A stretch of DNA of 52,927 nt from a bacterium (GTDB taxonomy: Bacteria > Patescibacteriota > Minisyncoccia > UBA6257 > GWB1-50-10), in assembly GCA_027310365.1 (NCBI GenBank), contig DAIDAY010000003.1:1-52927 (forward strand). The letters run 5' to 3'. How positions within the stretch are numbered: the stretch's first letter is position 1; each line of letters starts with the position of its first letter. Shown here piece by piece: positions 9,112-49,866 of the stretch. The translations under genes were made by a program, and so were the position numbers. The notes beneath the pieces were generated by a model. The model had not been told where the DNA came from, did no database searches, and saw only the letters and a list, made by a program, of their open reading frames with translations.

Positions 9112-9673
9112 AAAAGTGGGGATAATTATGCTATAGGGTACTCCAAAAAGAACAGAAATTCCAGAGAGGGATGAAATAGCCATTGCTCAAGCCCAACGGA
9201 TAAGACCGGACAAGGGTTTGATTTTCTTCCCACTGATCCTGGAGGCGATACCGAAAACAGGAGGTGGCAAAGCACGCTTTTGGTCCACAACTTTGACCAT
9301 GAAATCTCGGAGGAAGCGGTACGATATTACCGTAAATGCGGGATTTTTCATCCGTCGTCCATTCCGGAAGCCATCTAGAGGGAACCCCTCATGAGTGGAG
9401 AAGGATAGAAGTTTTACGATAGGCGACAGCGATCCTGCCGCTTATCTCTTTATTCCTTATCTGTCGCACAAGGTATATTTTGCGCACCATCATCAGGCGT
9501 TGGGTCATTTTAACGGTGTTCGTTTTCTGTCACATCTTACGTCACGTCGAAAACCCAATGTAACGACGTGCTGGCGTTTCGAGCGTGAGAATTCTTTTTC
9601 CTGCATTGAAGTCAACCGCACAGCGATTTCCAATGACTCGGTATCCCACTTTGTTTTCCTTAATGTACAAAAT

Positions 9674-27028: not shown

Positions 27029-27463
27029 ATGGCAACCCGCCATTTGATCAGATCCATCGTCCTTCAGTCCCTCTATGAGTGGGATTTTTACGATAAGAAA
27101 GCTGATCTCGCCCGCATTATAGAGGACAACTTGAGCGAGTTCGGCCCCGGCATCGACGAGCCGGAATTTGCCTGGCGGCTTTTGAAAGGTATTATCGACC
27201 ATCTGCCCCAGCTTGATGAACTGATTAAAACATACGCCAACGAATGGCCGCTGGATCAAATAGCCATCGTCGACCGCAATATCCTCCGCATCGGACTCTA
27301 TGAACTCATCTACGCCAACCGGGACGAAGTGCCGCCGAAGGTTGCCATCAATGAAGCGATCGAGATTGCGAAGAACTACAGCGGGCAAAATTCGCCCCGT
27401 TTCATCAACGGGGTTTTGGGGACGATCTACAAAGAATTGGAGGAAGGCAGAATCAAACCTTAA
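27029..27463 (+). CDS. nusB: Transcription antitermination factor NusB
   Basis: R...LQ.LYE, DRNILR...[19 protein letters not shown]. Confidence 0.97.
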
Positions 27464-28139
27464 GGATTTTTTTCACTTCCCTCCAAACACGTTCATGAAT
27501 CTCCTTAATCGTGAGGAGTTTATTGTCTCCGACACACTCAACGACAACAAAATCTCCGGGGAACATTTTTGTTATCTCGAGATATGTTCTTTCCGCGCTC
27601 TTCAAATGCGATTGATCTTCTTCATGGATATCTCTCCTTTCTCCGTGAAGGTATTTTCTCGAATGTTTCTTGCCAATCAGATCATAGGCTATTCGAGAAG
27701 GAACATGGAGCAGAATCGAAACAGTGGGTTTCGGGATGTCCATCATGATGTATTCAAAATCATAAACCCATCGCAAGTACTTTTCCCGCGCACGCCTGTC
27801 CGTTATTTTCGCTCCCTGATGCCCCATGTTGGAAGAGACATACCGGTTGGAAACAACTATGTTCCCCGCATCGATCCATTCCTTTATCTTCGGTCCGACA
27901 TCAAACCGGTCCACGGCGTAAAACACCGAGGCTTTGTACGGGCCGACATCGCGCCATCCGCCATAGCGCCCGTTCAAATATTGTTCCACAAAAAAAGCCG
28001 ATGGCTTCCCGTACTGCGGGAAGTCGAACGTCGCCGTTTTGAATTTCTCCCTCTTTAATCTTTTCAGCAAAAGTTTGAACTGTTCTCCTTTTCCCGATCC
28101 GTCGATTCCTTCAATGACGATGAATTTTCCCCTTTTCAT
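27453..28139 (-). CDS. tmk: Thymidylate kinase
   Basis: [23 protein letters not shown]. Confidence 0.93.
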
Positions 28140-28382
28140 GCCTCGTAGTACAACCGCAAGCTATTTGTTGTTTGAATAATAAACCTTTGATTTCTTTTCT
28201 TTGCCACCCCCCCGCCCGGAAAGCCCCGCCGCAGTGCGACAGGAATGAACGGATGGCATCCCGAATCTCGTATTCCGCTTCCGGGAAGCTCCCGTGTAGG
28301 GGGCGGAGAGCTCTTCGCCGTACACTGTTCCATCCTCGCATACACGCCTTTGGCGACATCATTCGCAGTTGTACTACGAGGC
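28140..28382. mobile_element. 243-bp MITE-like element at the tmk start codon, carrying repeat module B
   Basis: AT-gcctcgtagtacaac ... gttgtactacgaggc-AT, perfect 15-bp TIR; internal 58 nt identical to 49582-49639. Confidence 0.88.
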
Positions 28383-28444
28383 ATGAATTTTATTATACCA
28401 AAACTCTGTTCCGCATTTTCCGTTGCGAACGAAGAGGAACGAAC

Positions 28445-28471
28445 AAAAAGCCACCCAAGCGGATGGTGGCT
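28445..28471 (-). terminator. Intrinsic terminator after rplK
   Basis: agccacc/ggtggct stem followed by a T tract on the minus strand. Confidence 0.7.
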
Positions 28472-28496
28472 GATGAGCGGGAGAAAAATTTATGCT

Positions 28497-28922
28497 CTAG
28501 TCTATGACTTCTACACCCATATTTTTGGCGGTTCCCGCTATGATCTTCATTGCCGCCTCAACATCATTCGCATTCAAATCGATCATCTTCTTCTCCGCAA
28601 TTTTTCTCAAATCATCCTTCGTAATTTTTCCTGCCACTTTCTTGCCGGATTCTCCGGAAGCTTTTTCGATGCCGGCGGCTTTCTTGATAAGAGCGGATGC
28701 CGGCGGTGTTTTGAGTTTAAACTCGAACGACCGGTCTTCGTAGATGGTTATTTCCGCAGGAATCACGTCACCCCTCATGTCCTTCGTGGCTTCATTAAAC
28801 TGCTGCACAAAAGCGCCGATATTCACGCCGTGCTGGCCCAATGCCGGGCCGATTGGCGGGGCCGGAGTCGCTTCTCCTGCCTTGATCTGCAATTTTAACG
28901 TCGTTTTGATCGGTTTCGCCAT
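28497..28922 (-). CDS. rplK: 50S ribosomal protein L11
   Basis: [31 protein letters not shown]. Confidence 0.98.
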
Positions 28923-49351: not shown

Positions 49352-49866
49352 TTACTCAGATTTTGCGGTTTGCAGCAAAAACTTTTCTTTGTACAGCATT
49401 ATAGAATTCTTTATCTCTAAGAGCAACTTTTTATCAGCGTATCTTATATGAATGAGACCGTGCGCCATTTTCCTTCCGTCCGGCAGATAATCTCTTCCCA
49501 TTATACGGCTGAGTGAACTGTTTCCGAATTGACGAGCTCTTTGCTACCCCCCCCGCCCGTTCATTCCCGCCGCAGGTATGGCAGGAATGAACGGATGGCA
49601 TCCCGAATCTCGTATTCCGCTTCCGGGAAGCTCCCGTGTTTGAGGGCGGAGAGCTTCACTCCGGTCACTAATCAGTTTATCGGCATTTTGATCGGAGTAA
49701 CAATGCAGCAATACTCGAAGTCCACCATTATCAAGTTCGTACGTGCCCCCGGAAGTATCTCAGAAACATAGCAGTCGTATCAGGATCGCTGTTGGCAGAA
49801 TTTATCCTCGACCCCTTATCGCTTTTATCGCCTTTTCCCCAATCAAGTATGGCAAAGCACAGAAAA
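49352..49866 (-). pseudogene. Frameshifted, repeat-interrupted gene for a tRNA-adjacent LAGLIDADG-like protein
   Basis: Stitched frames: ILDWGKGDK..ANSDP....FLRYFRG / YELDNGGLRVLLHCYSDQNADKLI / KQFTQPY / RKMAHGLIHIRYADKKLLLEIK; family call is from recall. Confidence 0.55.
49535..49655. repeat. Repeat module B
   Basis: Homologous to 28198-28312, 58 nt identical. Confidence 0.92.

Follow-up and report, generated by a model that had tools for sequence, protein, structure and literature searches.

How does an essential, single-copy gene go on being translated when a 245-bp structured insert sits on its start codon? The question is raised by tmk in the window, by which we mean the whole 52,927-nt stretch of DNA analysed here (contig DAIDAY010000003.1 of the patescibacterial assembly GCA_027310365.1), from an organism that starts many of its genes leaderless. 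Reading the minus strand, TGGTATAAT, composed of TGG (28400-28398) and TATAAT (28397-28392), is followed by 7 nt (28391-28385) and then by an ATG (28384-28382) that opens a frame running up to the start of tmk. A first-pass annotation had described this series of TGG, TATAAT, 7 nt, ATG at 28384, 82 codons and a TGA overlapping the tmk ATG, and every part of it was present when we re-read the coordinates. The features needed for the argument are the following:

27453-28139, minus strand: tmk (thymidylate kinase), intact, 228 aa, single copy, from the ORF list and relatives
28136-28384, minus strand: upstream frame of 82 codons, with its TGA (28138-28136) overlapping the tmk ATG (28139-28137) to give ATGA at 28139-28136, from the ORF list
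28140-28384, minus strand: insertion of 245 bp, in one of several equivalent cuts, with no counterpart at the tmk start in 8/8 same-genus genomes
28141-28159, minus strand: arm B, the gene-side inverted repeat (GTTGTACTACGAGG), followed by C and the tmk ATG, from repeat search, fold and family layout
28176-28181, minus strand: TATTAT, a weak candidate for an internal -10 box about 36 nt before the tmk ATG, putatively assigned by reading the sequence
28198-28312, minus strand: nested folded repeat of ~115 nt, of a separate family and in sense orientation, from BLAST recurrence
28207-28213, minus strand: G7 run inside the upstream frame, with one extra base in some same-sample contigs
28363-28381, minus strand: arm A, the promoter-side inverted repeat (CCTCGTAGTACAAC and further pairing), from repeat search, fold and family layout
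28392-28400, minus strand: extended -10 box TGGTATAAT, 7 nt 5' of the upstream ATG
28451-28466, minus strand: terminator-like hairpin 3' of rplK, from a terminator scan

The same site is empty in relatives. In all eight congeners the tmk ATG (protein start MKKGKF or MRRGKF) comes 6-8 nt after TATAAT, and no other sequence intervenes; the 450 nt examined upstream of tmk reached rplK in seven of them, the eighth (G002) having a longer spacer. These empty sites include those of G001 and G005, two genomes that carry the same arm family at other loci. Cutting 245 bp (28140-28384) from the window yields TGGTATAATAAAATTCATGAAAAGG, which is the congener layout, and this restoration, together with the eight empty sites, bears out the annotated insertion between a leaderless promoter and tmk. 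CATG flanks the insert on both sides, and it is this duplication of ATG or CATG at the two ends that allows several equivalent cuts. The Tmk protein is 70-77% identical to its counterparts in seven of the eight congeners and 49% identical to that of G005, and has one match in its own genome. We further examined sequencing contigs from four DNA runs of one sample and one study, possibly the source sample; none of the runs listed is recorded as RNA. Contigs from three runs spanned both junctions (tmk-arm B-core and core-arm A-promoter-rplK), none of the contigs of the four runs joined across an empty tmk site, and contigs broke inside the nested repeat. The locus thus offers a clean comparison of filled and empty sites at an essential leaderless gene, in a composite copy with a nested repeat, both of which are new here.

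The terminator-like hairpin on the rplK side (28466-28451) leaves tmk with its own promoter. We counted -10-like boxes (at least 5/6 matches, TAnnnT) before the ATG of ORFs of at least 100 codons throughout the genome. Their number peaked at spacings of 6, 7 and 8 nt (43, 49 and 29 cases, respectively), other spacings gave 3-22 cases each, and those of 5 nt or less were at background. With 121 such ORFs carrying a -10-like box 6-8 nt before the ATG, the leaderless layout is common in this genome, and the sharpness of the peak makes the leaderless reading of the tmk promoter, which is made from sequence, a well-founded one.

The ends of the insert belong to a family. The 14-mer CCTCGTAGTACAAC occurs exactly at 28368-28381 (-) and 28141-28154 (+); allowing up to two mismatches there were three matches against 0.08 expected, a number reached in 0/100 shuffles. 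At the BLAST identity seen for the central ~115 nt, the arms did not recur in their own genome, and they were recognised by pattern search. Terminal inverted repeats of the family read CCyyGTAGkACAAC ... GTTGTmCTACrrGG, to which the tmk copy conforms with exact 14-nt arms, and the same arm type is present in G001, G005 and contig C4 of the own genome. The pattern was found in 4 of 401 genomes sampled from the order and in three of the nine genus genomes, namely its own, G005 and G001, the last a complete genome in which 21 arm hits make up about 11 elements. Gene-less copies usually measure about 126-132 bp; one G001 copy has 313 bp.

Position and orientation of the copies point to start codons as the target. 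YATG stood on both sides in all 14 paired copies of the genus, arm B adjoined the ATG of an ORF of at least 68 aa in 13 of the 14, and the orientation relative to the host gene was identical in all copies. The host genes in the genus, named from peptide reading, include gap (twice), rpsT-like, rpmB-like, ABC ATPase and RF2-like genes; hosts in the own genome, recognised by Pfam, include a ClpB-like gene and a penicillin-binding-protein (PBP) gene. At gap, the element is found in two species and a one-armed relic in a third. A good -10 box at 6-8 nt before the left ATG was present in 6/14 genus copies and in 3/22 autonomous copies (see below), and at several of the other genus copies the gene before ends with its stop codon ahead of the left ATG. 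Since few copies lie behind a good -10 box, the target appears to be start codons in general, and not leaderless promoters specifically. We conclude that the tmk insert is very probably a non-autonomous, decayed copy of an inverted-repeat element that targets start codons. That sister copies occupy gap, ribosomal-protein, clpB-like and penicillin-binding-protein genes poses a testable question on translation initiation in ultra-small bacteria, and equally on the means by which an element of roughly 300 bp, with a nuclease gene and no other, could occupy start codons and leave its host alive.

Two further own-genome copies, at C11:20881-21131 (+) (locus L255) and C3:~9514-9650 (-) (L254), lie between genes. 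The preceding gene ends at a TAG inside arm A (CCGTAG or GGTAG), so that the element supplies the stop of the upstream gene plus the ATG of the downstream one. The host on C11 encodes a PBP transpeptidase of 616 aa and that on C3 a Cu-oxidase_4/PgeF-like protein of 246 aa, and the C3 copy has CTG instead of the upstream ATG. A 460-codon frame through the C3 copy was considered as an in-frame fusion and rejected, having no Pfam hit and running antisense to the DHH and Cu-oxidase_4 genes. Two loci, C66:13710-13758 (-) in the own genome and L032 in a genome of another family (G325), are one-armed relics whose arm B reads GTTATACTAC. Lying before gap (C66) and thrS (G325), they have TATACT, 7 nt and ATG through a single G-to-A change, apparently cases in which a leaderless promoter was made out of an element arm.

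Longer relatives carry a gene. In the 313-bp copy of G001 (651387-651699), the upstream ATG opens a 95-aa frame through arm A with a GIY-YIG domain (PF01541 at 9.2e-15). The annotation's proposal that the element took over the original initiation site agrees with this same-arm relative, in which the nuclease frame begins at the captured ATG. The autonomous unit is about 280-310 bp long and its sole gene is that of the ~95-residue GIY-YIG nuclease. A profile search gave as nearest solved relatives the UPF0213 proteins BH0048 (1zg2, 7.9e-11) and EF2693 (1ywl, 1.6e-7), followed by SLX1 (1.1e-4), a likeness that concerns the autonomous relative only, the tmk copy being without nuclease. In NCBIfam the sole hit, to a group I intron endonuclease, was below threshold (23.3 bits versus a cut-off of 56).

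The protein collection contains 74 homologues of this nuclease, with lengths of 70-126 aa, and many of them begin MPxxTTS. A scan of species genomes gave 227 stretches encoding relatives of the nuclease, the best 80 of which were examined, and among these 80 loci 22 open in frame with M[PS]xxTT. Each of the 22 has an inverted repeat of the first 16 nt behind its ATG (13-16 of 16 matching) immediately beyond the stop; (T)ATG and a host ORF of at least 136 aa come next, and the nuclease stop lies 2-25 nt before the host ATG. This count is biased, as the loci were picked by the in-frame M[PS]xxTT, a filter that 58/80 failed. Among the 58 unselected loci are variants lacking the ATG, and in many of the 58 an internal Met may be where the nuclease truly begins. 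There is no internal Met in the subfamily of this genus, so that no start other than the captured host ATG is apparent. No close copy of the nuclease occurs in the own genome, where the best match (42% identity) lies elsewhere than the tmk insert. The 82-aa frame of the insert matched no Pfam family at E up to 1 and encodes no nuclease. Distant small GIY-YIG frames occur in the own genome at C44:36188-36361, C55:5117-5311, C7:1752-1952, C84:24919-25122 and C11:10500-10700; they are 31-42% identical to the family nuclease, two have internal stops, and they may belong to other mini-element subfamilies.

The middle of the tmk insert is occupied by the nested repeat. Nine further copies in the own genome show 85-93% identity, making about 10 copies in this 747-kb genome, and BLAST of 40 relatives found none. 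One of these copies also lies in the window (49538-49655, minus strand, 88% identity), and read depth over the repeat was ~20x that of its flanks. Its consensus folds into a three-helix junction of 34 pairs, 7 of them G-U on the minus strand, with no compensatory changes. An Rfam scan of 27900-28700 at E up to 10 gave no match in the element and three chance-level hits (E 1.8-1.9) outside it. tRNA genes adjoin three copies of the repeat, and at two other copies the stop codon of the preceding gene is the first TGA or TAA of the repeat. The arm element on C11 also holds the nested repeat, in opposite orientation, which suggests that the nesting happened at least twice or that the two families share some affinity.

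Deleting the ~113-119 nt of the repeat from the tmk insert leaves 126-132 nt, the typical size of a copy, with a frame of ~35 codons that ends in ...KVYYSNNK at the ancestral TAG. This TAG is 21 nt before tmk, the same gap as that of the nuclease stop in the G001 element. We infer that a second repeat lodged inside an arm element that was already in place.

This composite build accounts for most of the upstream frame. The first eight codons, MPRSTTAN, are a relic of the nuclease N-terminus contributed by arm A, other copies reading MP(R/C)RTTSN. At the other end, LYYEA was compared with the nuclease tail VYYESKK and rejected as a homologue: DNA alignment shows the frame shifted by one base there, so that the relic is limited to the first eight codons. 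Bases 25-221 of the insert contain no stop in any of the three sense frames, and three of the six frames are stop-free over the whole 249 nt. One named frame was stop-free in 665 of 20,000 dinucleotide shuffles (3.3%), a figure on which a frame ending at the ATGA would look unlikely by chance, as the annotation had judged. However, with the G+C-rich nested repeat stop-free in all sense frames, a frame from the ATG must reach at least base 221, and phase alone then decides whether it ends at the TAG at -21, in the ATGA overlap or 28 nt into tmk; the prior for 82 codons ending at the ATGA is therefore roughly one in three, and not 3.3%. Openness is a property of the sequence, not of that one frame. 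A frame open in one of three phases is also compatible with weak selection for the ATGA overlap.

The comparison among copies gives the same picture, and the idea of an end-to-end open frame as a family or selected trait finds no support in it, since other start-site copies contain stops. The relic frame stops 21-90 nt before the host ATG in 11 of the 13 other genus copies (at 49 nt or more in eight of them). In the remaining two, it overlaps the host ATG by 8 nt in one and reads on in the other, where the host ORF is doubtful. In the own-genome C11 copy it stops 95 nt before the ATG of the PBP gene. Translational coupling and leader-peptide uORFs classically have an upstream frame that ends on the next start codon and a stem that hides that start. 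At tmk the stop does overlap the next start (ATGA); in contrast to such systems, the upstream frame is not conserved among homologous copies, encodes no recognisable peptide and consists of mobile-element debris. We therefore regard the 82-codon frame as mostly a by-product of how the element was built, rather than a selected relay device. The new observation that so striking an upstream frame is mostly debris carries a warning for annotation: the remains of mobile elements can add up to an upstream frame that is both long and perfectly placed.

The G7 run bears on the same frame, because some contigs of the sample contain one extra base there, which would end the frame at the TAG 21 nt before tmk. 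At 28216 and 28239, contigs of the sample also show substitutions in agreement with the repeat at other loci. These differences may represent a real variant of the tmk locus or cross-talk from other repeat copies.

If the frame is a by-product, the start of tmk still has to be exposed. The insert is predicted to form a 25-bp terminal stem, in which 28387-28363 pairs with 28159-28135 and which includes both AUGs. A 263-nt RNA had a predicted energy of -108.3 kcal/mol (z = -5.97), with 0/200 shuffles as stable. The predicted probability of being unpaired was 0.10 for the 5' AUG, 0.36 for the tmk AUG and 0.00 for the 12 nt before the tmk AUG. Folding predicts a stem of 20-26 pairs between the arms for 12 of 14 copies, with the host AUG mostly paired (unpaired probabilities of 0.08-0.40).

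The explanation that we favour, and hold to be somewhat more likely right than wrong, combines a decayed start-codon element, a nested repeat, a frame that is a by-product and an accidental help from ribosomes. The element inserts exactly on start codons, leaving an ATG at both ends, and in the full-length relatives of this subfamily the nuclease would be read from the captured host ATG through arm A. The tmk copy has lost the nuclease, an unrelated folded repeat of 115 nt having lodged mid-element, and its frame is made of eight relic codons, the stop-free repeat and a last 28 nt that fell by chance in the ATGA phase. Transcription from the conserved extended -10 box would start at or near the upstream ATG, and ribosomes would load there as they formerly did on tmk and read the relic frame. 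In doing so they would open up the 25-bp stem of the arms and terminate at the start of tmk, where they could help re-initiation, a help that would be accidental to the tmk copy. Against this explanation, the paired state of the 5' AUG (0.10) should hinder leaderless loading, unless loading is co-transcriptional. Coupling at tmk is accordingly to be seen as possible, and as neither conserved nor needed elsewhere in the family; that it makes a real contribution to the translation of tmk we consider rather doubtful.

Most sister copies on essential genes have stops far upstream of the host ATG, so the family would need a way of exposing that ATG that does not depend on the individual copy. By analogy with known inserts, cleavage of the arm stem is the best candidate for it. 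As a complete account of the tmk locus, removal at the RNA level would have RNase III or another double-strand nuclease cut the arm stem of 20-26 bp and free a tmk mRNA with a very short leader, to be translated as leaderless; lying at the 5' end of the message, the insert could be lost with no need for ligation. We judge this account unlikely. It draws on the pairing of the arms in 12/14 copies and on an RNase III encoded in the own genome (130.9 bits), and it would operate wherever the relic frame stops, also at operon-internal sites such as those on C4, C11 and C3. Precedents are found in Correia elements, described in PMC2649163 as binding and as open to cleavage by RNase III, and in PMC11270868, which describes GIY-YIG genes in non-intron rRNA insertions of CPR bacteria and intervening sequences cut by RNase III. 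However, the arms are possibly conserved only for mobility at the DNA level, the sense-strand stem has C-A and G-A mismatches in most G001 copies, and a cut inside the stem would leave a leader of about 10 nt.

Selection of the frame as a relay, such that tmk would depend on ribosomes entering at the captured ATG, translating all 82 codons and starting anew at the ATGA, seems to us distinctly unlikely. The ATGA overlap behind a leaderless-type promoter is what a relay would look like, as is a predicted stem that hides the tmk AUG until a translating ribosome unmasks it, and tmk is single copy and intact. The nuclease stop 2-25 nt before the host ATG in the 22/22 selected autonomous elements has the geometry of coupled genes, but such a short gap is also expected from an ORF that fills a minimal element. 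The stop-free nested repeat accounts for the open frame without a relay, and the family argues against one: the early stops in 11/13 other genus copies fall on genes such as gap, rpsT and rpmB, the C11 stop lies 95 nt before the PBP gene, and C3 has CTG for the upstream ATG.

An outward promoter inside the element, either TATTAT (28181-28176) or arm B, would transcribe tmk without arm A, and its start would never be hidden. The C66 gap and G325 thrS relics show that arms can become leaderless promoters, Correia elements are described as creating promoters at their ends (PMC2649163), and several copies have AT-rich hexamers resembling a -10 box at 35-45 nt from the host ATG, on its 5' side. Yet no TAnnnT hexamer stands 6-8 nt before the tmk ATG, where the sequence offers GTACTA, TGTACT and TTGTAC, and across the genome -10-like boxes at 5 nt or closer do not exceed background; on this hexamer content and spacing, arm B is unlikely to serve the tmk copy as a leaderless promoter. 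The internal hexamers, moreover, vary in sequence and position among copies, and a promoter scan that requires a -35 box reported nothing inside the element. We rate this explanation as very improbable. Equally improbable is an insertion merely tolerated or mildly harmful, with tmk translated inefficiently by breathing of the stem and through no special mechanism: no dedicated feature is in evidence and the host AUG has an unpaired probability of 0.08-0.40 across copies, not zero, but the presence of the family on gap (two species and a relic in a third) and on ribosomal-protein genes implies long persistence on highly expressed genes, and the tmk copy has had time enough to take up a nested repeat and to diverge from the other copies in its genome.

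On a bolder reading, the family would be a start-codon hijacker whose ORF or relic is read from the host initiation site, with a built-in means of handing the start back, either by ribosomes that unzip the stem or by an RNase III cut. We put it forward tentatively, as a reading with more chances of being wrong than right. If it holds, the stem cut would trim the insert in the manner of an rRNA intervening sequence, here for messages, and nature's clearest test of it would be the tmk copy, where an ATGA overlap goes together with a perfect 25-bp stem.

Our search of the literature found no description of an inverted-repeat mini-element that carries a GIY-YIG nuclease and targets start codons. 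We know of no report that Correia elements (CREE) of Neisseria sit exactly on or rebuild start codons, nor of any nuclease-bearing parent for them, in contrast to the present family, the parent of which encodes a GIY-YIG nuclease read from the host ATG. As presented in PMC2649163, CREE are gene-less inverted repeats of 100-160 bp that are co-transcribed with neighbouring genes; what they have in common with the tmk element is a stem and ends with the potential to alter expression, the ends by acting as promoters and the stem by RNase III binding or cleavage. The 23S rRNA intervening sequences, described in PMC11270868 as stem-bracketed inserts cut out by RNase III without ligation, resemble the tmk insert in that this too is bracketed by a long stem in an essential transcript, cleavage being here only a candidate; they differ in that the tmk insert is carried by an mRNA, at the extreme 5' end of the message.

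Insertion sequences and MITEs offer a parallel: their long autonomous and short gene-less forms have the same inverted repeats at the termini, a given site may be filled in one relative and empty in another, and a short duplication borders the insert. They differ in the gene, the only one of the present family being that of the ~95-aa GIY-YIG nuclease and not a DDE or serine transposase, and in the size of the autonomous unit (about 280-310 bp), the start-codon target and the fixed orientation to the host gene. The nearest published system is the Ssn family (Chenal et al. 2025, PMC11893778), in which a small single-domain GIY-YIG protein is encoded by a gene flanked by a hairpin-forming NTS/SRM repeat that is dispersed in the genome. 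That description also fits the autonomous relative, as a possible member of cd10448 with arms that may count as SRM motifs. Ssn is presented in that paper as a site-specific ssDNA nuclease modulating transformation, not as a mobile cassette on start codons; the homologue lists of the same work might include the proteins reported here.

A metagenome scan with the arm pattern, from which 80 loci were kept, gave 83 arm matches in these loci. Five instances (three distinct elements) were true copies; the remainder were 56 matches to a tight hairpin repeat and 22 solo or other matches. The hairpin repeat, seen at loci L148-L172 and others, has the motif GTAGGACAACTGCGA, in which arm, 2-nt loop and arm form a hairpin within a longer repeat of a G+C-rich organism, and is possibly related to the arms as a hairpin-only form, possibly not related at all.

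Upstream of tmk, loci L019 (G008) and L022 (G002) contain a different extra stretch, of roughly at least 150 nt, between the rplK terminator and the tmk promoter. It begins after a common GGAAAATGCGGAAC motif, which in the window is found at about 28420-28407.
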